Assembly: GCA_015069575.1 (NCBI GenBank)
Contig: SVIH01000007.1
Location: 13,925 to 77,924 of the forward strand
DNA from: Clostridiales bacterium
GTDB lineage: Bacteria > Bacillota > Clostridia > Christensenellales > QALW01
Direction: 5' to 3'
DNA length: 64,000 bases
Part shown: positions 8,615 through 26,130 of the stretch, piece after piece
Layout of the letters: each line of letters begins with the position of its first letter
How positions within the stretch are numbered: the first letter of the stretch is position 1
Made by a program: the position numbers and the translations under genes
The notes under the pieces: model-generated
Told to the model about the DNA's origin: nothing
Database searches by the model: none
Seen by the model: only the letters and a program-made list of their open reading frames with translations

Positions 8615-8874
8615 AAGCATTTTTAACAGTTATCGGACACGACCGCGTAGGCATTATTGCTGATGTAAGCGCAAAATTAGCAAAAAACAAAGTAAACATT
8701 CTTGACATTACACAAACAATTATGCATGACTATTTTACAATGGTTATGTTTTTAAGTTTAGAACAAAGTGATTTGGATATTGCGGGACTTCAAAAAGAAT
8801 TTGCAGATTTTGATGAAAATCTTGAGGTAAGAATTCAAAGCGAAGAAATATTTAATAGTATGCACCGTCTTTAA
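8611..8874 (+). CDS. ACT domain protein (UPF0237)
   Basis: [15 protein letters not shown]...NILDITQTI...IFNSMHRL; usual partner of DUF711. Confidence 0.88.
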
Positions 8875-8885
8875 TGGAGAGAAAA

Positions 8886-10244
8886 ATGATAAATTTTAAC
8901 GAAGTAAATGAAACTATACAAATGCTTGATAACCAGCATCTTGATGTTCGTACAGTTACAATGGGCATTTCTCTTTATGACTGTGCTGACAGTGACAAAA
9001 ATAAAGCTTGTACGCAAATTTATGATAAAATTTGTTCTAAAGCAGAACATCTTGTAACTGAATGTGAAAAAATTGAAAAAAATCTTGGTATTCCAATTGT
9101 AAATAAAAGAATTTCAGTTACACCAATTGCCCATATTGCTTCTGCTGCAAGAGTTAACGATGCAGTTTGTTTTGCAAAAACTCTTGAAAAGGCAGCACAA
9201 AATGTAGGCGTTAACTTTTTAGGCGGATTTTCGGCACTTGTACACAAAGGAATTACACCCGGTGATATGGCATTAATTAACAGTATTCCTGAAGCAATGG
9301 CTGTAACAGACCATATTTGCTCATCAGTTAATATTGGTTCAACAAGAGCCGGTATTAATATGGATGCTGTTTTAAAAATGGGTCAGATCATTCGTCAAAC
9401 TGCCGAAATGACTACAGATAACAGCAGTATTGGTTGTGCAAAACTTGTTGTTTTTTGTAATGCAGTTGAAGATAATCCATTTATGGCAGGTGCATTTTTA
9501 GGCTGTGGCGAAGGCGACTGTGTTATAAATGTTGGCGTAAGCGGACCGGGCGTTGTTAAGTGTGCGCTTGAAAAGATGCCCGATGCTTCTTTAGGCGAAT
9601 TAGCAGAAGAAATTAAGAAAACTGCTTTTAAAATTACAAGAATGGGTCAATTAGTTGCAACCCGCGCTGCTGAAAGTTTAAATGCGCAATTTGGTATTGT
9701 TGACCTTTCACTTGCCCCAACACCAACAATGGGTGATTCTGTTGCACACATATTAGAAGAAATGGGACTTTCTTCAACAGGCGGTCCCGGCACGACTGCT
9801 GCACTTGCAATGCTTAACGACGCTGTTAAAAAAGGCGGAGTTATGGCATCAAGCCATGTGGGCGGTCTTTCAGGTGCATTTATACCTGTTAGTGAAGATA
9901 TTGGTATGATTAACGCTGCAAAAGCAGGCACACTTACATTAGAAAAACTTGAGGCAATGACCTGTGTTTGTTCTGTTGGTCTTGATATGATAGCAATTCC
10001 GGGAGACACAAGCGCTGCAACAATTTCAGGCATTATCGCTGATGAAGCAGCAATCGGTATGGTAAATTCAAAAACAACTGCAGTTAGAGTTATTCCTGTT
10101 ATTAATAAGGGCGTTGGCGAAATGGTAAGCTTTGGCGGCCTTTTAGGCGAAGCACCCATTATGCCTGTTAATAGCGCAAATTGTGAAAAATTCATATCCC
10201 GTGCAGGAAGAATTCCTGCGCCGCTGCAGAGCCTTAAAAACTAA
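8886..10244 (+). CDS. DUF711/UPF0210 PFL-like family protein
   Basis: [35 protein letters not shown]; start moved to 8886 because of RBS ggag. Confidence 0.9.
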
Positions 10245-10560: not shown

Positions 10561-10682
10561 TTTTATTTAGCCTTTGCTTGACTTTTAGTTTGCTATAATG
10601 TATAATATTAAAAATATTCTTATATAATATATAATTTATTAATAATATATTTATTCGATTACATTTTGAGAGGAGAAGAAGC

Positions 10683-11594
10683 ATGTTCAGATATATTATC
10701 AAACGCGTACTGTTAGCAATATTAACAGTTTTTATAATCTGCACAATAACATTCTTTACCATGCACGCTGTTCCCGGTGGTCCTTTTAACAGGGAAAAAG
10801 CATTGAGTGAGGCTACAATTCAAGCATTAAACGAAAGATACCATCTTGATGAACCTCTTTTAACTCAATTTGGCTTATATATGAAAGGTTTACTACAAGG
10901 TGATTTTGGCGTTTCACTTAAAAACGGCAGAGAAATTTCAAATATTATTGGTGAATCCTTCCCCATTTCTGCGAAATTAGGTTTGATGGCAATGGGTCTT
11001 GCGCTTTTATTAGGTACTGTGTTTGGAAGCGTTGCTGCACTAAAAAGAAATAAATTTATTGATAGAGTTATCGTTTTCTTGTCCACCCTTTTCACTGCTG
11101 TACCAAGCTTTATTCTTGCAACCCTGTTGCTTTACATATTCTGTAACAAATTAGGTTGGTTCCCTGTTTGGAGTGTAGATAAACCAAGTTACGTTTTACC
11201 CGTTATTGCTCTTTCAGCATATCCAATGGCTTACGTTACAAGATTATCAAAAACAAGTATGCTTGATGCATTAAGCCAGGATTACATTCGCACCGCAAAA
11301 GCAAAAGGCGTTTCAAAATGGTTGATTATTTTTAAACATGCTTTAAGAAATTCACTTATTCCCGTAATAACATATGCAGGACCACAGATTGCATACATTA
11401 TTACAGGTTCAATGGTTATCGAAACTATATTTACTGTTGGCGGTATCGGTAGCAAGTTTGTTACTGCTATTAATGACCGTGACTATCCTTTAATTATGGC
11501 AACAACAGTTTTCCTTGCAACGATTATGGTTATTGCAAACCTTATCTGCGATCTTCTTTATAAAGCTGTAGATCCCAGAATTAAATATGAGTAA
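10683..11594 (+). CDS. oppB: oligopeptide ABC permease
   Basis: RYIIKR...VPGGPF, DYIRTAKAKG (EAA loop), HALRNSLIP, RDYPLI. Confidence 0.92.
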   Translation: MFRYIIKRVLLAILTVFIICTITFFTMHAVPGGPFNREKALSEATIQALNERYHLDEPLLTQFGLYMKGLLQGDFGVSLKNGREISNIIGESFPISAKLGLMAMGLALLLGTVFGSVAALKRNKFIDRVIVFLSTLFTAVPSFILATLLLYIFCNKLGWFPVWSVDKPSYVLPVIALSAYPMAYVTRLSKTSMLDALSQDYIRTAKAKGVSKWLIIFKHALRNSLIPVITYAGPQIAYIITGSMVIETIFTVGGIGSKFVTAINDRDYPLIMATTVFLATIMVIANLICDLLYKAVDPRIKYE

Positions 11595-11610: not shown

Positions 11611-12678
11611 ATGGATGACAAATTTCCCAAAAAGAATATATTAAGCACACAGATCGATCTTTCAAAATTTGAGCCTGCTACTGACGATGAGAAAAGACAA
11701 CAGGATGTTATGAGTGAAAGCACCACCTTTTTTAAAGATGGTATGCGCAGGCTTATGAAAAACCCCCTTGCAGTTTTAAGTATTATTATTCTTGGTATTA
11801 TATTACTTACCATTGTTTTTGCACCTATGTTTGTTCCATACGATTATGATGAAATGATAAAGGTTAACGGTAAAAAAGACAAATCCTGTAATAACCTTGC
11901 TCCTTTTACATATAGTGAAAACGAAATGGCTTATATGGAAAAAACAGGCGAAAAGCTTTTCCCCCATATTTTTGGAACTGATGAACTTGGCAGAGATTAT
12001 TTTGTTCGTGTTATATATGGAACAAGAATTTCATTATTAGTTGGTGTTTTTGCTAGTATTATCGTTCTTATAATCGGTATGCTTTACGGAAGTATTTCAG
12101 GATATTTTGGTGGAAAAGTGGATTTGATAATGATGCGTATAGTTGATATTATCTATTCTTTACCTGATATGCTTATAATTATTTTGCTTTCGGTTGTTCT
12201 TAACCAGATAATAACATTTAAGCCCGGTTCCCTTTTATCTGAATTGGGTACAAATATGATTTCAATATTTATTGTGTTTGGTATGCTTTATTGGGTTAGT
12301 ATGGCAAGACTTATCCGTGGGCAAATACTTTCTATTAAAGAAAACGAATACATACTTGCTGCCCGTTCTATCGGCGCTAAACCAGGAAGAATTATCGGTA
12401 AACACATTTTACCTAACTGCCTTTCAGTTATAATTATTTCAACTGCGCTTCAAGTTCCCTCTGCAATTTTTACTGAAAGTTATTTAAGCTTTATTGGTTT
12501 AGGTGTTAAGGCTCCCATGCCTTCACTTGGCTCACTTGCAAACGCTGCAAGAAATGGTTTGGAATTCTATCCTTACAAACTTATATTCCCCGCTATTGTT
12601 ATATGTCTTATTGTTTTAAGCCTTAACCTTTTAGGCGATGGCTTGCGCGATGCATTTGACCCCAAATTAAAGAGGTGA
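11611..12678 (+). CDS. oppC: oligopeptide ABC permease
   Basis: HIFGTDELGRD, EYILAARSIGA, NLLGDGLRDAFDPK. Confidence 0.92.
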   Translation: MDDKFPKKNILSTQIDLSKFEPATDDEKRQQDVMSESTTFFKDGMRRLMKNPLAVLSIIILGIILLTIVFAPMFVPYDYDEMIKVNGKKDKSCNNLAPFTYSENEMAYMEKTGEKLFPHIFGTDELGRDYFVRVIYGTRISLLVGVFASIIVLIIGMLYGSISGYFGGKVDLIMMRIVDIIYSLPDMLIIILLSVVLNQIITFKPGSLLSELGTNMISIFIVFGMLYWVSMARLIRGQILSIKENEYILAARSIGAKPGRIIGKHILPNCLSVIIISTALQVPSAIFTESYLSFIGLGVKAPMPSLGSLANAARNGLEFYPYKLIFPAIVICLIVLSLNLLGDGLRDAFDPKLKR

Positions 12679-12683
12679 TTAAA

Positions 12684-13688
12684 ATGAGTGAACATCTTTT
12701 AAGCGTACAAGATCTGCACACTTCATTTTTTACCGACAAGGGTGAAGTGCAGGCAGTTAACGGTGTAACCTTCAATCTTGACAGAGGTGAAACCCTTGGT
12801 ATTGTTGGCGAATCCGGATCAGGAAAAAGTGTTACTGCATATTCAATTATGCAGATTCTTGCTGATACAGGAAAAATTGTTGGCGGTAAAATTTTATATA
12901 ACGGCAATGACCTTTCCACTTGGAACGAAAAACAAATGCGTTCTTTCAGAGGTAAATGTTGTTCAATAATTTTCCAGGATCCTATGACAAGCCTTAACCC
13001 TGTTTTTACTATTGGCAGTCAGTTAAAAGAAGCAATTACTTTACATACTGATAAAAAGGGCAAACAGGCAAAATTGAGGGCTATTGAGCTTTTAGAACTT
13101 GTTGGTATTAACGAACCTGCAAAACGATTAAAGCAATATCCGTTTGAACTTTCAGGCGGTATGCGTCAAAGAGTTATGATTGCAATGGCACTTGCATGCG
13201 AGCCTGATATTTTAATTGCTGATGAACCTACAACTGCACTTGATGTTACTATTCAGGCACAGATTCTTGAACTTATGCAGGAATTACAAAAGAAACTTGG
13301 AATGGCTGTTATTCTTGTTACCCATGACCTTGGCGTTATTGCTGACCTTTGTGATAATATCGTGGTTATGTACGGTGGAAAAATTTGTGAACGCGGAACT
13401 GCTAAAGAAATTTTTTATAACCCAAAACATGAATACACAAAAGGTCTTTTAAAATCAATTCCTAACATAAACAAAATGAAGGAAAAATTAATTCCTATTG
13501 CCGGCACACCTATTAACATGCTTAATTTACCTAAAGGCTGTTCATTTTGTGCCCGTTGCGATAATGCAATGAAAATTTGTTTAACCGAGCAACCTGAAGA
13601 ACTTGTTATAAACGAAAATCACAAGGCTTCATGCTGGATGAATGTTAAAAACGCACTTAAAAACGAAGGAAGTGAAGCAAATGAGTGA
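12684..13688 (+). CDS. oppD: oligopeptide ABC ATPase
   Basis: [25 protein letters not shown], and a C-terminal Cys cluster. Confidence 0.92.
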
Positions 13689-14637
13689 TATTTTATTAGA
13701 AGTAAAAAACTTAAAGCAATACTTCCCTGTTCGTTCTAATGGTAAAAAAGTTCCTTTAAAGGCGGTTGATGATGTTTCATTTACCATTAATAAGGGTGAA
13801 ACATTGGGCCTTGTTGGTGAATCCGGTTGTGGCAAAACAACTGTTGGAAGATCTATCCTTCAATTATACAAGCCCACCGCTGGTGAAGTTTATTTTGATG
13901 GTGAACTTGTTACAGATAAAAATATTAACCAAATGCGTAAAAAAATGCAGATGGTTTTTCAGGATCCATATTCTTCATTAGACCCAAGAATGACTGTTGA
14001 AGATATTATTGGCGAGCCATTAGATGTACATAAACTGTATTCAAACAAGAAAGAGCGCCGCGAAAAAATTCTTGAACTTATGAATTATGTTGGCCTTAAT
14101 GCTGAACATGCAACACGTTATGCACATGAATTTTCAGGTGGTCAGCGTCAACGTATAGGTATTGCGCGTGCATTAGCTGTTGATCCGCAATTTATTGTTT
14201 GCGATGAACCTGTTTCTGCGCTTGACGTTTCTATACAGGCACAGGTTATCAATATGTTTGAGGATCTTCAAAAGAAACTTGGCGTTGCATATCTTTTTAT
14301 TGCCCACGATTTATTAGTTGTTCACCACATTTCAAAACGAATTGCGGTTATGTATTTAGGAAAAATAGTTGAAATTGCTGAAGCTGATGATTTGAACGAA
14401 AATCCACAGCACCCCTACACACAATCATTACTTTCTGCAGTACCTATTCCCGATCCTGATATTACAAGAAGCCGCAAACGTATTATTCTTGAAGGTGATG
14501 TTCCAAGTCCCCTTAATACTCCATCAGGTTGTGCTTTCCGCACAAGATGTAAGTATGCTACTGAAAAATGTGCTATGGAATGTCCTTCCCTTACCGATCG
14601 CGGTAACGGTCACTTTGTTGCTTGTTGGAACAAATAA
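13681..14637 (+). CDS. oppF: oligopeptide ABC ATPase
   Basis: [25 protein letters not shown]; start set at MSDILL. Confidence 0.92.
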
Positions 14638-14736
14638 AGAAATCACTTTTTATACTTTGTAACAAATGTGGTTGTTGTTTGTTAATTTAGTATAAAAGGA
14701 TTTTATAAAAAATATTTTCTTAGGAGGAAAAGAAAA

Positions 14737-16497
14737 ATGAAAAAACTGTTCGCAATTCTTCTTGCACTTGTTACTGTTTTCTCATTCTGTGCTTGCAACC
14801 CCAATGATGGACCAGGCGTTGGCGGCGACGTTGATGCAGAAAGCCTTTTAAGTGATGCATTTATTGATCCCGTTAACGGATGGAAGGTTTATGATGATCT
14901 TATTGCACAGATCAAAGCAGAAACTGACTATGCAAAACGTGCTGAACTTATGCATAAGGCTGAAGACATCCTTATGTCAAACGGTTGCGTTATTCCCCTT
15001 TACTACTACAATGATATCTACATGCAGAAATCATATGTAGAAAATGTTTATTGCAACCTTTTCGGTTATAAGTTCTTCCACAATGTTAACATGACAAATG
15101 GTGAAAAAACACTTCGTGTTAACCTTGCAAGTGAACCTGATTTCCTTGATCCTGCACTTAACTCATCAGTAGACGGCGCATGCCTTGCAGTTAACTCATT
15201 CGCAGGTCTTTACACCTACGATAAAGATGGAAAAACTGTTCCTGATCTTGCAACAGGATACACAGTTTCAGAACCTGCTGAAGATGGCTCTGTTACATTT
15301 ACTGTAACACTTAAAGATGGTCTTAAATGGTCAGATGGTTCAGCTCTTACTGCAAAAGACTTTGAATATTCATGGAAGCGCGCTGCTAGTGAAAAAACAG
15401 CTTCTGACTATGGATATATGTTCTCAACATTTGTTGGATATCCAAATGATCTTAGCGTTAGTGCAACAAACGATACAACTCTTGTTTTTGCTTTAACTGC
15501 TCCTTGCGCTTACATCGAAGGACTTATGGCATTCCCCACATTCTTCCCTGTTAAGCAGACAGCTGTTGAAAGTTACGATGATTGGCAGACTTCACCTGGC
15601 GGATGGTGCCAAGAAGCTGGCTTCATTTCAAACGGACCTTTCATCTGCACAGGTTGGACACATGATCAGTCAATGATTTATGAAAAGAACCCCTACTATC
15701 ATAATGCAGATAAGGTAACAATCGACAAGCTTACATTTATGCTTTCAGCTGATGATACAGCTATTTACAATGCATACAAAGCAAACAACGTTGATTTTAT
15801 TGACAGTGTTCCCACTGATGCTATTAAGGAACTTAAAAATAATCCTGAATTCAAGATTATTGATAACCTTGGTACATATTATGTAGCATTCAATGCTAAC
15901 AGTGATCTTTTCAAAGGCAAAACTGCTGCTGAAGCTGCTTGCATGCGTCTTGCATTCAACATCCTTATCGACCGTGATTATATCTGTGAAAGCGTTGGTC
16001 AGACAGGCCAGATCGCCGCTAACTCATATATTCCTGTTGGTATGAAAGATGGTAACGGTGGTATCTTCAAACCCACTGCTGCAGACAATGCATACTTTGA
16101 TGATAAAGCTATCAATGAAAAGCCCGAAGAAACTCTTGACCTTGCACGTAAATATCTTATGGCTGCAGGCTTCAAGTTTGATGCAGAAGGTAAACTTTCA
16201 AGCGAAACACCTATCGTTATTGAATACCTTACAAACGACGGTACAGGCCACGTTGCTGCTGCACAGTCAATGCAGACCGACTTTAAAGAAATCGGTATTG
16301 AAATGACAATTCAGCAGGTTGAATGGAATACATTCCTTCAGGAACGTAAACAGGGTAACTTTGATATTGCCCGTGAAGGTTGGCTTGCTGACTTTGATGA
16401 CCCCATCAACATGCTTGAAATGTTCACAACTGATTCTGGTAACAACGACTGCCAGTTTGGTCGTAACCAGGCTTGGAAAGATGCTCAGGCAAAATAA
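14737..16497 (+). CDS. oppA: oligopeptide-binding lipoprotein (SBP family 5), apparently circularly permuted
   Basis: Lipobox FCAC; LASEPDFLDPA, LKWSDG, AKDFEYSW, NGPF, GWLADFDDP. Confidence 0.9.
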   Translation: MKKLFAILLALVTVFSFCACNPNDGPGVGGDVDAESLLSDAFIDPVNGWKVYDDLIAQIKAETDYAKRAELMHKAEDILMSNGCVIPLYYYNDIYMQKSYVENVYCNLFGYKFFHNVNMTNGEKTLRVNLASEPDFLDPALNSSVDGACLAVNSFAGLYTYDKDGKTVPDLATGYTVSEPAEDGSVTFTVTLKDGLKWSDGSALTAKDFEYSWKRAASEKTASDYGYMFSTFVGYPNDLSVSATNDTTLVFALTAPCAYIEGLMAFPTFFPVKQTAVESYDDWQTSPGGWCQEAGFISNGPFICTGWTHDQSMIYEKNPYYHNADKVTIDKLTFMLSADDTAIYNAYKANNVDFIDSVPTDAIKELKNNPEFKIIDNLGTYYVAFNANSDLFKGKTAAEAACMRLAFNILIDRDYICESVGQTGQIAANSYIPVGMKDGNGGIFKPTAADNAYFDDKAINEKPEETLDLARKYLMAAGFKFDAEGKLSSETPIVIEYLTNDGTGHVAAAQSMQTDFKEIGIEMTIQQVEWNTFLQERKQGNFDIAREGWLADFDDPINMLEMFTTDSGNNDCQFGRNQAWKDAQAK

Positions 16498-16558: not shown

Positions 16559-16589
16559 AAAAAAACAGGATTTAAAAATCCTGTTTTTG
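16559..16589 (-). terminator. terminator of the oxidoreductase operon
   Basis: aaaaacaggattt-aa-aaatcctgttttt hairpin. Confidence 0.75.
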
Positions 16590-20919: not shown

Positions 20920-23220
20920 TTATAATTTATTTCTTTGTATTTTACCGCTTGTTGTTTTGGGAAGTTCATCTCTGAACACAACTATGCGGGGATATTTATA
21001 CGGTGCGGTACGCTGTTTTACGTATTCCTGAATTTCTTTCTTTAATTCTTCAGTAGCTTTTGTACCTTTAACAAGCACAATACTTGCTTTAACTACCTGA
21101 CCGCGAACCTCATCAGGCTCAGGTGAAACACCACATTCAAGAACGTAAGGAAGTTCCATAATAACGTTTTCAATTTCAAAAGGACCGATGCGGTAGCCTG
21201 ATGATTTAATAACATCATCAACCCTGCCAACATACCAGAAATAACCGTCTTCATCACGCCATGCAGTATCACCTGTGTGATAGAAGCCATCATGCATACA
21301 TTCGTTTGTTTTTTCAATATCGGTATAGTAACCATTAAACAAACCGCAAGGTACGCCGTTTGAAATATTAATACATATTTCACCAACTTCACCAACGGCA
21401 ACCGGCTGATCATCACTATCAAGAAGCTGAATATCGTAAAGCGGAACGGGTTTTCCCATTGAACCTAACCTTGCTTTTGTACCTGCAAGGTTTGCTAAAG
21501 CAACTGTTGTTTCCGTCTGCCCAAAGCCTTCCATAATCTGAAGACCTGTAGCTTTTTCAAACTGCCTGAAAACTTCGGGGTTTAAGGCTTCACCTGCTGT
21601 TGACATATGTTCTATAGTAGAAAGATCAAACTTGGAAAGATCTTGTTTGATCATCATTCTTAAGATTGTGGGCGGAGCACAGAATGTTGTAATGCCATAT
21701 TTTTTGAACATTGGCATAATATCGTTTGCATCAAAACGATCAAAATCATAAACGAAAATTCCTGCTTCGCAAAGCCACTGACCGTAAAGTTTGCCCCATG
21801 CAGCTTTAGCCCAACCGGTATCAGCAACTGTAAGATGTAAGCCATCTGAATTTACACAATGCCAATATTTTGCAGTAATAAAATGACCTAAAGGATATTT
21901 ATAATTGTGCATTGCAATTTTGGGATTGCCTGTTGTACCTGATGTAAAGTACATAAGCATTGGATCACTACCACAAGGTGTTTCTTCTGTTCTATCAAAT
22001 TTACCTGTATAAAGGCTGTATTCTTCATCAAAATTATGCCAGCCTTGGCGTGCTTCACCAACAATAATCTTGGTTTCAACACAGGGGCTTAATTCTGCTG
22101 CTTTATCAACCTCATCAGCAACGATACCGTCAGAAGTACAAATTATCATTTTTACATCTGCTTTATTGAAGCGGTATGTAATATCGTGTTCCTTTAACTG
22201 ATTTGTTGCAGGAATTGCTATTGCACCAATTTTATGAAGTGCAATCATACTGAACCAGAACTGATAATGGCGTTTTAAAATAAGCATTACCTTATCGCCT
22301 TTTTTAATGCCAAGCGATTTAAAATAGTTGGCAGTTTGTGAACTTGCGCGTTTAAGCTCGCCAAAGGTGAATTTACGCTCTTGTTTATCTTCAGCAATAT
22401 GAACCATAGCAATTTTATCTGCCTGTTCCCTGCCTAAGCGGTCAATAACATCGAAAGCAAAGTTGAATTTTTCTTCGTTTTTAAAGGATATTGCCTGTAA
22501 GATACCTGCTTCATCCTCAGTTGGAATAATAAAATCTTCCCAAACACGATTTTTCTTTACGCCATCCTTTTTCTTTTTAGGCGCAAAAACGAAATCTTTT
22601 GTACCGCCATGAACAAGCTGATGTGGTGATTCATTTGATGAATTAAGTACAAATGCATAGAAAATACAATCATCGTTTTCTACAGCTATCATTCCGTGAG
22701 GCTTTGATGAATCGTAATAAATACTATCGCCTTCGTGAAGAATTTCAACATGGTCACCGACCTGAACCTTTAAGGCGCCTTTAATTACGATATCACATTC
22801 CTGACCTTCGTGAGTTGTAAGTTCAATATCCTTATTTTGTGCGTTTTCATCATAATGGAAAACAACGTAAAGAGGCTCAGCAATACGGTTTTTAAAGCTT
22901 GATGCAAGGTTATAATAAGTCATACCGTGCGCTTTTTGAATTTCCTGTCCTTCACCCTTACGTGTTAAGGTGTATCCTGCAAGACGAGGACTTGTACCAT
23001 CAATAATATCCGTAACATCAACATTAAGGGCTAATGCGCACTTATACAAAAATGCAAAGTTAAGGTCATCCTGACCCATTTCACAGGCAATATATTCTTC
23101 TGTGCTTACACCTGTTTTCTGCGCCATTTCTTCAATAGATAAGCCAACGATTTCCCTTAACGTTTTGATTCGCTGTGCCATTTCCTGAATTTTAAATTCA
23201 AGACCTGTTGCAGTTTTCAT
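20920..23220 (-). CDS. XRE-HTH/cupin fused to acyl-CoA synthetase (copy under the Val T-box)
   Basis: N-terminal HTH (RIKTLREIVGLSIEEMA), cupin (HEGQE...GDSIYYDS..PHGM), and AMP-binding motifs YFTSGTTGNPK, GFGQTET, GRVDDVIKSSGYRI. Confidence 0.88.
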   Translation of the reverse strand: MKTATGLEFKIQEMAQRIKTLREIVGLSIEEMAQKTGVSTEEYIACEMGQDDLNFAFLYKCALALNVDVTDIIDGTSPRLAGYTLTRKGEGQEIQKAHGMTYYNLASSFKNRIAEPLYVVFHYDENAQNKDIELTTHEGQECDIVIKGALKVQVGDHVEILHEGDSIYYDSSKPHGMIAVENDDCIFYAFVLNSSNESPHQLVHGGTKDFVFAPKKKKDGVKKNRVWEDFIIPTEDEAGILQAISFKNEEKFNFAFDVIDRLGREQADKIAMVHIAEDKQERKFTFGELKRASSQTANYFKSLGIKKGDKVMLILKRHYQFWFSMIALHKIGAIAIPATNQLKEHDITYRFNKADVKMIICTSDGIVADEVDKAAELSPCVETKIIVGEARQGWHNFDEEYSLYTGKFDRTEETPCGSDPMLMYFTSGTTGNPKIAMHNYKYPLGHFITAKYWHCVNSDGLHLTVADTGWAKAAWGKLYGQWLCEAGIFVYDFDRFDANDIMPMFKKYGITTFCAPPTILRMMIKQDLSKFDLSTIEHMSTAGEALNPEVFRQFEKATGLQIMEGFGQTETTVALANLAGTKARLGSMGKPVPLYDIQLLDSDDQPVAVGEVGEICINISNGVPCGLFNGYYTDIEKTNECMHDGFYHTGDTAWRDEDGYFWYVGRVDDVIKSSGYRIGPFEIENVIMELPYVLECGVSPEPDEVRGQVVKASIVLVKGTKATEELKKEIQEYVKQRTAPYKYPRIVVFRDELPKTTSGKIQRNKL

Positions 23221-23573: not shown

Positions 23574-25841
23574 TTAAAGTTTATTGCGCATTATCTTACC
23601 GCTGATTGTCTTAGGAAGTTCATCACAGAACACAACAATTCTTGGGTATTTATAAGGTGCGGTATGGGATTTAACATATTCCTGAATTTCTTTCTTTAAG
23701 GCTTCTGTTTTCTCTGTTCCTTTAGTTAAAACTATGCTTGCTTTAACTACCTGACCCCTGATTTCATCAGGAGCAGCAGAAACACCACATTCAAGAACAT
23801 AAGGAAGTTCCATAATAACGCTTTCTATTTCAAAAGGCCCTATGCGGTAACCTGAAGACTTAATAACATCATCAATACGGGAAACGTACCAGAAATAGCC
23901 ATCTTCATCACGCCAGGCAGTATCCCCTGTGTGATATAAGCCATCATGCCAGGCATCTGTGGTTTTTTCATTATCAAGATAGTATTCTTTAAATAATCCA
24001 CAAGGTACATTTTTATCTGTATGAATTACGATTTCGCCTGTTTCACCGTTAGGTAACGAATTGCCATCAGGATCAACAATATCAACATCATACTGTGGTG
24101 AAGCCTTACCCATTGAGCCAATTTTGGGCGCTGTACCTCTTAAATTGCAGATGGTAAGGGTGGTTTCGGTTTGACCGAAGCCTTCCATAATCTCTAATCC
24201 CGTTGCCTTTTTAAATTGTTTATAAACCTCAGGATTAAGTGCTTCTCCTGCAGTAGTCAAATGATGAATTGAAGATAAATCGTATTTTGAAAGGTCTTCT
24301 TTAATAAGCATACGAAGCATCGTAGGTGGTGCACAGAAAGTTGTTATTTGATATTTTGCAAACATTGGTAAAATATCTGCAGCATCAAAACGATCAAAAT
24401 CATAAACAAAAACTGCACCTTCGCAGAGCCATTGACCGTAAAGTTTACCCCAAAGTGATTTACCCCAACCTGTATCAGAAATGGTAAGATGCAAGCCATC
24501 TCTTTCACAACAATGCCAATATTTTGCAGTAACAAAATGGCCTAAAGCATAAGTGTGTTTATGGCAAGCCATTTTGGGATTACCTGTTGTACCTGATGTA
24601 AAGAACATTAACGCTGCTTCATCACCTGAAGAAGTATCTTCACTTCTTTCAAACTTACCTGAAAAACGAACATATTCGCTGTTAAAATCATGCCAGCCCT
24701 CTTTTTGATCGCCAACAATGATTTTTGTTTCAACTTGCGGGCAATTTTTAGCGGCATTTTGGGCAATATTAGAAACATCACCATCAGAAGTACACACGAT
24801 AGCCTTTACGCCTGCGGCATTATAGCGGTATTCAAAATCGTGTTCCTTTAACTGATTTGTTGCAGGAATTGCTACTGCGCCTAACTTATGAAGGGCAACC
24901 ATAGAGAACCAGAACTGATAATGGCGTTTTAAAACAAGCATAACCTTATCGCCTTTTTTAATACCCAGTGAGGCAAAATAATTCGCAGTCTGATTTGATG
25001 CGCGCTTTATATCCTTAAAGGTAAAGCGTTTTTCGTTGTGATTTTTATCAACATAAAGCATTGCAAGTTTATCAGGATATTTATTTGCGATTTCATCAAC
25101 AACATCAAAACCAAAATTAAAGGAATCAGTATTTGTAAACTCTATATTCTCTAAAACGCCGTTTTCGTTTTCGTGACATTTAACGAATTTTTCGCAGATA
25201 AGAGATTCTGTTTTTTTAGTTGATGCAATACTTTCTCTTACAATCTCTTCCTTGGTGCTTTCACCAGGTAAAACTACTGCGCAGAAAACACATTCCTTGC
25301 CATCAACCGCAATCATACCGTGAGGCGTTGAAGAATCGTAATAAATACTATCGCCTTCGTGAAGAATTTCAACATTTTCACCAATTTGTACTTTAAGTGA
25401 GCCTGATAAAATCAAGTCGAATTCTTGGCCCGAATGCTTTGTTAAATGGATAGGTTTATCCTGTTGCAAAGGTGAATATTCATAACGAACCATATAAGGT
25501 TCGGCAATTTTATCGCGGAACTTTGGCGCAAGATTTTTAATATCAATGCCCTCTTCCTTTGCAGTAACCTGGCCCTGACCTTTTCTTGTTACGGTATAGC
25601 CTGAAAGGTGTGCGCCCTTGCCTTCAAGAAGCTCAGAAAGTTCAACATCAAAAACAAGTGCACATTTATGTATAAATGAGAAAGGAATATCTGCCTGACC
25701 GCCTTCATACTTGGTGTAAGCTTCAACTGTTACTTCGGTTTTTTGTGCCATTTCTTCAATAGAAAAACCCATAATATCACGCATTTCTTTAATTCGTGAT
25801 GCTATCTCCAAAAGTCGTGTCAAGGTTGTGTTAGTTTCCAT
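23574..25841 (-). CDS. XRE-HTH/cupin fused to acyl-CoA synthetase (copy under the Ile T-box)
   Basis: Paralog of 20920-23220; FFTSGTTGNPK, GFGQTET; start METNTT with RBS aaggag. Confidence 0.88.
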   Translation of the reverse strand: METNTTLTRLLEIASRIKEMRDIMGFSIEEMAQKTEVTVEAYTKYEGGQADIPFSFIHKCALVFDVELSELLEGKGAHLSGYTVTRKGQGQVTAKEEGIDIKNLAPKFRDKIAEPYMVRYEYSPLQQDKPIHLTKHSGQEFDLILSGSLKVQIGENVEILHEGDSIYYDSSTPHGMIAVDGKECVFCAVVLPGESTKEEIVRESIASTKKTESLICEKFVKCHENENGVLENIEFTNTDSFNFGFDVVDEIANKYPDKLAMLYVDKNHNEKRFTFKDIKRASNQTANYFASLGIKKGDKVMLVLKRHYQFWFSMVALHKLGAVAIPATNQLKEHDFEYRYNAAGVKAIVCTSDGDVSNIAQNAAKNCPQVETKIIVGDQKEGWHDFNSEYVRFSGKFERSEDTSSGDEAALMFFTSGTTGNPKMACHKHTYALGHFVTAKYWHCCERDGLHLTISDTGWGKSLWGKLYGQWLCEGAVFVYDFDRFDAADILPMFAKYQITTFCAPPTMLRMLIKEDLSKYDLSSIHHLTTAGEALNPEVYKQFKKATGLEIMEGFGQTETTLTICNLRGTAPKIGSMGKASPQYDVDIVDPDGNSLPNGETGEIVIHTDKNVPCGLFKEYYLDNEKTTDAWHDGLYHTGDTAWRDEDGYFWYVSRIDDVIKSSGYRIGPFEIESVIMELPYVLECGVSAAPDEIRGQVVKASIVLTKGTEKTEALKKEIQEYVKSHTAPYKYPRIVVFCDELPKTISGKIMRNKL

Positions 25842-25864
25842 TTTAATCTCTCCTTTTTTAAAAA

Positions 25865-26130
25865 ATAAAACCCGTCTCAAAAATTACTTTGAGACGAGTT
25901 TTGAATAACAAATACCCGCGGTACCACTCAATTTGCACAAAGTTTGTGCCACTTAAGGCTCAATTAAGCCCGATGCTTTTACGCAGCAATCACGGAAGAC
26001 GCCTACTGATAAAAATACTTTCGGATCTCCAGCTCAGAAGTGATAGGAATTATAATCTTTGTTTATCGGCTTTCACCAAATGCCGACTCTCTGAAAAACG
26101 TAAATTAAATCCGTCTTCGTCACAGCTTTT
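25865..26130 (-). ncRNA. T-box riboswitch, specifier AUC (Ile)
   Basis: GCTGTGACGAAG/CTTCTGAGC, CAGAGAG, GGTGAAA, codon ATC (26044-26042) before a-CTTC, T-box AATTGAGTGGTACCGCG, and terminator ctcgtctcaaag...ttgagacggg-tttt. Confidence 0.92.

Follow-up and report, generated by a model that had tools for sequence, protein, structure and literature searches.

The 64,000 nucleotide stretch of DNA analysed here (the window) contains, at 14737–16497 on the forward strand, an intact open reading frame with an ATG start and 586 codons that encodes a circularly permuted OppA-type (family 5, cluster C) substrate-binding lipoprotein. Sequence comparison confirms this gene as a natural circular permutant of OppA, and a structure model is consistent with that assignment. 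We consider it highly probable that the product is an intact OppA-type protein whose last ∼74 residues have been moved to the front, that it has the predicted OppA fold and serves as peptide receptor of the adjacent OppBCDF, and that its gene has a history of duplication and trimming. An initial annotation had proposed a natural circular permutation on the strength of three peptides quoted from this frame, all of which, like the frame itself, are present in 14737–16497; its interpretation is supported, and is extended here by at least six rotations in the family that were reached more than once.

The protein begins with a predicted lipoprotein signal peptide up to Cys20 (14737–14796; this and the following features lie on the forward strand), which was placed from sequence and homologue alignment, FCAC at Cys20 fitting the lipobox pattern. 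C20 is near-invariant in a 52-row alignment, and a lipobox-like Cys was matched by a loose pattern in 112/119 homologues, lipidation being predicted from sequence alone. The tether (residues 21–48; 14797–14880) begins with a variable stretch and continues with the conserved element AxxLxSxAFIDP, which the AlphaFold2 model shows as ordered, model residues 1–18 falling within blocks of pLDDT 94–97. The moved segment that follows (residues 49–122; 14881–15102) was identified as the normal C-terminus by phmmer, by alignment with the close normal-order relative P0146 and by DSSP of the model; it begins at W49 (14881), as claimed for the segment behind the lipoprotein tether, and ends at residue 122 (15102). 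It comprises two domain-III helices, the second hinge strand (PLYYY) and the closing domain-I strands, as assigned by DSSP on the model and the domain bounds in PMC6305025, and Y91 of PLYYY aligns with Y485 of Salmonella OppA. A two-residue link (15103–15108), placed by the P0146 alignment and bridged by contigs of three runs, joins the old C-terminus (residue 122) to the old first strand (residue 125). The core (residues 125–577; 15109–16467) corresponds to the normal N-terminus through the NN motif of domain III according to Pfam, phmmer, structure alignment and the P0146 alignment, and a new C-terminal tail with a short predicted helix completes the frame together with the stop codon (16468–16497). 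In 58/119 close homologues the tail after NNDxQFG (16468–16494 in the window) contains a Trp, like the W that opens the moved segment, which is possibly a relic of terminal redundancy.

Annotation by Pfam misses the rearrangement because SBP_bac_5 (PF00496) covers only the unmoved middle: the match (E 8e-74; 249 bits against a gathering threshold of 32.4) spans profile positions 2–367 of 368 and residues 167–570. Local alignment to canonical OppA gave the two swapped stretches that had been anticipated. With phmmer, residues 120–573 match 16–451 of the B. subtilis OppA chain 8ARE (i-E 6.9e-56) and residues 51–116 match 456–521 (i-E 1.8e-05), and the order is equally swapped against B. subtilis DppE 8AY0 (112–570 to 10–444; 48–111 to 447–512, i-E 1.4e-08). 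When the front segment was used as sole query, six PDB sequences matched, each at its own C-terminus (best E 1.5e-10). Against P0146, residues 49–122 correspond to 517–590, the latter being its last residue (54%, E 7e-20), and residues 125–577 correspond to 54–500 (54% identity), so that the usual N-terminal motif follows the moved segment and the protein ends where that segment would normally begin, as originally described. These two non-overlapping, swapped segments cover the whole homologue, and their P0146 coordinates indicate that the old ends are joined by two residues. The swapped matches to 8ARE, 8AY0 and P0146, with which the model is consistent, bear out the proposed circular permutation; the window's protein lacks the normal chain order, with start and end in domain I, and the swapped segments make it a variant of substrate-binding protein family 5/cluster C.

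The AlphaFold2 model, built from residues 32–586 with 96 sequences, has a mean pLDDT of 95.1, a pTM of 0.92 and no residue below 70, and predicts a closed three-domain, two-lobed fold with a two-strand hinge. Two helices and a long strand make up the moved segment in this model, as they do the normal C-terminus. VIA-align ranked 8ARE first (Z 32.1; rmsd 2.3 over 421 residues), in agreement with Foldseek. All 50 VIA-align rows shown start at model residue 85–94 and end at chain residue 397–498, so that none covers the moved segment in order; sequential aligners superpose the core but not the first ∼85 model residues, and we infer the overlay of the moved segment. No solved structure with the permuted order was found among these 50 rows or the top three phmmer alignments, which are not an exhaustive set. 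The PF00496 cluster C fold is common to the window's protein and to B. subtilis OppA (8ARE/8ARN) and DppE (8AY0) and Salmonella/E. coli OppA (1B05, 1OLA, 3TCF), with Z of 30–32 and rmsd of 2.3–3.6. In contrast to this set, to which it is ∼27–31% identical, the window's chain runs from domain III to the NN motif with the old ends fused, and its oppA is last in the operon.

Support for the junction and homologues of the same order, both raised by the initial annotation, were each found. Contigs from three of four runs bridge the junction without differences: in X2 (14373–15286), X3 (13814–16168) and X4 (14518–15449) a single contig spans tether and junction with neither gaps nor differing letters, and the fourth run, X7, has no cover at 15024–15150. 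X2–X4 are all 2018 faeces runs and may represent one campaign. The order is the same in all 119 other best homologues (65–92% identity; P0015 is an N-terminally truncated call) and in 80/80 GTDB loci (79 by strict tally, L050 having a wider envelope), whose records comprise 69 Bacillota, 7 Spirochaetota, 2 Bacteroidota and 2 unplaced, these phylum labels being those of MAGs in which binning errors are possible. A dN/dS of 0.03–0.15 against two same-genus orthologues, alike in moved segment and core, shows the gene to be under purifying selection. That the order is an assembly artefact, or the gene a dead rearrangement, is vanishingly improbable: the window does come from a draft genome in 22 contigs and probable chimeras occur in the family (P0316), but the three bridging runs, the 119 homologues and the 80 GTDB loci rule out misassembly, and the intact frame and low dN/dS argue against a dead gene. 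With the window's protein as query, this is the only full-length OppA match in its own genome (95.6% complete), where the same query found no leftover second copy of the moved segment; no second copy lies downstream in the 80 loci. The best of 3502 plasmid records reached 39.7%, none being close, the GC profile over the operon gave no island signal, and the listed RNA runs contain only 0.05–0.08 of the words.

The permuted oppA is the last gene of a run oppB-oppC-oppD-oppF-oppA. The preceding genes, all on the forward strand, encode an oppB-type permease (10683–11594; PF00528, PF19300), an oppC-type permease (11611–12678; PF00528, PF12911), an oppD-type ATPase (12675–13688; PF00005, PF08352) and an oppF-type ATPase (13642–14637; PF00005, PF08352) whose start codon may lie slightly downstream. 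A sigma-70-like promoter match of 11/12 upstream of oppB (10578–10606, forward strand) is a consensus match only, and a weak one, since 21 such sites were found against 24.3 expected by chance. A terminator-like hairpin on both strands (16561–16588) lies between oppA and the convergent por genes, which encode 2-oxoacid:ferredoxin oxidoreductase. An oppF-like gene precedes the permuted gene in 79/80 GTDB loci, the exception, L022, having ∼140 bases upstream; the protein is encoded with OppB, OppC, OppD and OppF, and this arrangement is conserved in related loci.

Alignment of the REGWLAD motif (16372–16392, forward strand) equates R546, G548, W549 and D552 with R413, G415, W416 and D419 of Salmonella OppA, which contact the peptide or bind its termini according to PMC6305025, and which are retained in 76, 77, 85 and 87 of 96 alignment rows, respectively. 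The window's protein thus has peptide-contact residues as well as partner oppBCDF genes in common with the Bacillus, Salmonella and E. coli OppA set. The best NCBIfam model was the OppA equivalog PRK15104 (E 1e-63), and its score of 215.7 bits, far below the cut-off of 947, marks the protein as OppA-type and not the enterobacterial equivalog; family 5 also includes nickel, opine and sugar binders. Judged from its sequence, the protein is likely the peptide receptor of the adjacent OppBCDF, lipid-anchored via the lobe that is normally far from the anchor, with peptide binding and transport as predicted activities. The neighbouring branched-chain-type aminotransferase and 2-oxoacid oxidoreductase genes would fit a role in amino-acid use. 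Two tandem genes on the reverse strand (20920–23220 and 23574–25880) encode HTH-cupin-AMP-binding (acyl-CoA synthetase-like) fusions and adjoin class IV aminotransferase and 2-oxoacid:ferredoxin oxidoreductase genes. Upstream of the opp operon lies a DUF711 gene (8874–10244, forward strand) that is also adjacent in L140, L142 and L143.

Rows from a profile search of 50% representatives, a class-wide genome search and fetched loci were mapped on a profile of 39 normal-order relatives, and cuts were named after profile positions. The 203 classified rows comprise six cut classes (h490, the window's cut, 91 rows; h313, 10; h395, 8; h157, 2; h370, 1; h204, 1), 80 normal-order rows and 10 tandem units, counts that are biased because rows were gathered with the h490 profile; fragments and other architectures are unclassified, and P0002–P0120 entered as 6/119. 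All six classes have the same fusion of the old ends with a similar link length, and on the model five of the six cuts lie in loops and one at the end of a three-residue helical turn. An independent metagenome scan of 80 loci recovered three of the cut classes again, with 27 complete normal, 19 h313, 9 h395, 6 h490 and 6 fused proteins (end unplaced) and 19 partial ORFs. Both segments match between sister proteins that differ in order (P0200/P0219, 64%/74%; L136/L137, 64%/77%). For 76/113 permuted rows the normal-order neighbourhood indicated by one segment is also that indicated by the other; in the other 37 the nearest normal-order protein of one segment is outside the top five of the other.

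Within the window's genus a match was present in 12/20 other genomes, and three orders occur beside the same por genes: h490 (L139, L141, L142, L143), h395 (L136) and normal order (L137). L136:6842–8620 (h395) and L137:6733–8577 (normal) lie at the locus that holds h490 in the window. The operons that contain them are more divergent, are orthologous to each other (OppC/D/F 73–80% identical) and differ in order. Their OppB is only 54–57% like that of the window, with por genes 78–91% alike, a disparity that suggests operon replacement. In the Spirochaetota records L053, L064, L065, L069, L070, L074 and L075 the h490 gene is 62–65% identical, and OppB 76–78% where present, which suggests transfer between phyla if the unchecked MAG labels hold.

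By alignment the cut maps between residues 441 and 445 of Salmonella OppA, in which domain III comprises 270–486 and domain I holds 1–44 and 487–517 (PMC6305025). Since the cut lies inside domain III and the normal N-terminus in domain I, the tether at the predicted lipid Cys20 would enter the other lobe, which supports, as a matter of chain topology only, the original suggestion that the permutation moves the membrane tether between lobes. In M. tuberculosis DppABCD, PMC10954201 reports that DppB recognises the lipid-anchored N-terminus and that this is required for assembly, so that the anchor position may not be neutral and the moved tether poses a real question. A window-type OppA tests the proposal derived from that system, that the permease must recognise an anchored N-terminus, because its anchor enters through the other lobe. 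The rotation could accordingly be adaptive, with anchoring at domain III altering the docking of the receptor on OppBC or its reach and kinetics, but we regard this as unlikely. Besides the importance of anchor recognition in DppABCD, the wide distribution, conservation and recurrence of the h490 form at the same loop and the new conserved, ordered element before W49 speak for it. On the other side, cuts occur in both lobes, the closely related L136 and L137 operons differ in order, the domain is also found C-terminal to kinase, SLH and other modules, and tether lengths overlap with no clear difference between classes (10–96 for h490, n = 45; 6–163 for normal order, n = 38; Cys placed by a loose pattern). 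We favour an anchor position that is apparently near neutral for function, which would have allowed rotations to recur at several loops.

For phylogenetic analysis the segments were restored to normal column order and junction columns were dropped, with LG+G4 as the only model. The permuted classes were interleaved with normal-order proteins on the trees. All 91 h490 rows fall within one clade (FastTree 0.993; SH-aLRT 100 on 79 rows), and an 8–33 residue insertion at the h490 site is present in 32/33 normal-order members of this clade and in 0/47 outside it. Normal-order gut Bacillota OppAs from the same clade, P0146 (cluster labelled Anaerofilum), P0149 (Pseudobutyrivibrio) and L083, are 49–69% identical to the window's protein in both segments, and differ from it in that the insertion covers the spot where the window's protein opens; normal-order insertion OppAs also have a similar operon (in L116, oppB 66% and oppC 69%). 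Some h490 proteins still carry the insertion, located N-terminally in P0169 and P0200 and C-terminally in P0170, P0171 and P0181, which indicates that the loop opened at different points. The h157, h204, h313, h370 and h395 rotations share the old-end fusion and operon type with the window's protein but have other opening points, and are scattered over the tree, also outside the insertion clade. A careful 36-row tree contains starred sister groups of differing order (P0200/P0219, P0188/P0215, P0223/P0210 and P0253/P0203), and its starred branches force at least six order changes. AU tests rejected a single clade for 13 h490 rows (p 6e-33) and for all 18 permuted rows (p 1e-37); a single origin was not rejected for the six h490 rows in the subclade to which the window's protein belongs (p 0.21). 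These trees make it likely that rotations arose repeatedly.

A possible but doubtful alternative is that h490 arose once, at the base of its clade, and that the insertion-bearing normal-order members are back-permutations in which the insertion is the scar of rejoined ends. All h490 and all insertion-bearing normal-order rows do lie in one clade, with normal-order P0146 and P0149 nested among h490 rows; the insertion of P0146 (…GSGAQEAGTVPSYAPDW) resembles the end of an h490 tether such as that of P0122 (…YNEAAPDW), and the A-B-A-B fusion P0121 includes a normal-order unit that has a long linker. The second subclade, however, has a long conserved insertion common to normal-order, h313 and h395 proteins, and its h490 members are cut at different points inside that insertion, a pattern that fits insertion first. 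The six or more changes are forced either way, and change counts cannot give direction. We prefer repeated rotation, for which a surface loop inserted at the domain III NN motif in this clade would have provided a tolerant opening place, and which may at times have run in the opposite direction.

The termini of oligopeptide-binding proteins are described as ‘in close proximity’, at the domain I sheet, in PMC10924461, a closeness that is a precondition for fusing the old ends; with the normal OppA N- and C-termini side by side in domain I, fusion would come at little cost. Most likely the gene was duplicated in tandem and in frame and then trimmed at both ends, an origin that we infer. Tandem fusions of two to four OppA units (P0121, 1320 aa; P0141; P0193; P0185, 2704 aa; P0268, 2843 aa) make this route feasible, and the two units of P0121, whose cluster of 10 members includes one labelled Anaerolineaceae, are 84% alike. 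Within each fusion all units have the same order, so that these proteins show that duplication happens, not that it made the window's permutant. Of the duplicated intermediates envisaged in the initial annotation, no trustworthy example was found; terminally redundant proteins numbered two among 120 hits, P0316 (724 aa) and P0286 (879 aa), both single-contig singletons that join two alleles. P0316 has the order A-B-A, with residues 1–164 98% identical to an h490 protein, residues 165–724 97–99% identical to a normal-order protein and the allele switch within a shared 11-residue block, and P0286 has an h313 protein fused behind a normal N-part. Both may be recombinants or assembly chimeras and are leads only. 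No A-B-A order was found among 18 hits of a search for longer proteins, and no terminally redundant intermediate among the 80 metagenome loci.

It is rather improbable that the rotations spread when operons were replaced and alleles of different order recombined homologously, through a crossover in the conserved block DPALNSSVDGA that gives a terminally redundant protein and subsequent trimming. The make-up of P0316 and P0286, the three orders at one locus in the window's genus, and h490 operons with OppB 71–83% identical in Bacillota and Spirochaetota records, which suggest whole-operon transfer, would all be in keeping with such a process. However, each of the two redundant proteins comes from a single contig, an assembler could switch paths within an identical block of 11 residues, and both segments are concordant in 76 of the 113 permuted rows and in the clear sister pairs. 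We also advance, tentatively, the broader idea that gut Bacillota OppA is a permutation hotspot in which at least seven orders change into one another, again and again and in either direction, between close orthologues at a single locus, the inserted loop being the preferred break and allele recombination giving intermediates of the P0316/P0286 type that spread new orders; if true, either lobe could come to bear the anchor while docking on OppBC stayed intact.

We found no account of a permuted family-5 protein in the open literature, and the main texts of CIRPIN and SeqCP lack the terms sought; the CIRPIN database (845 CATH topologies) may list the family. The PDZ circular permutants, as described in the CIRPIN paper (PMC13552848), likewise present one fold in several natural rotations, with four forms; these are small domains in distant proteins, whereas the case here is a ∼520-residue two-lobed receptor in at least seven orders, some between close orthologues. 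Natural permutations are usually known as isolated distant pairs, in which origin and neutrality are hard to test. One well-studied fold here occurs in the normal order and in six rotations; sister pairs are 55–77% identical, a single locus has three orders within one genus, and such cases allow direct comparison of folding, binding and transport across orders. The natural cut sites also mark opening-tolerant loops that are useful for sensor design. The betaine-binding proteins OpuAC and ProX presumably offer a parallel, as a domain swap with rearranged order in the substrate-binding protein of an ABC importer, but they belong to a different cluster and represent a single swap, unlike the series described here.

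Permuted OppA domains also occur in larger architectures. P0127, P0133, P0134, P0136, P0140, P0158 and P0159 are Ser/Thr protein kinases with a C-terminal h490-permuted OppA domain, and are possibly peptide-sensing receptor kinases by their domain composition. Other OppA-domain fusions involve SLH (P0139), Ig (P0150), zinc ribbon (P0142) and DUF6709 (P0144) modules. P0122–P0132 are h490 lipoproteins with acidic Ala/Glu/Asp-rich stalks of ∼450–750 residues between signal and binding domain, and the giant proteins P0214 (3278 aa), with Big_2 Ig-like repeats, and P0227 (3366 aa) end in an h313-permuted OppA domain.
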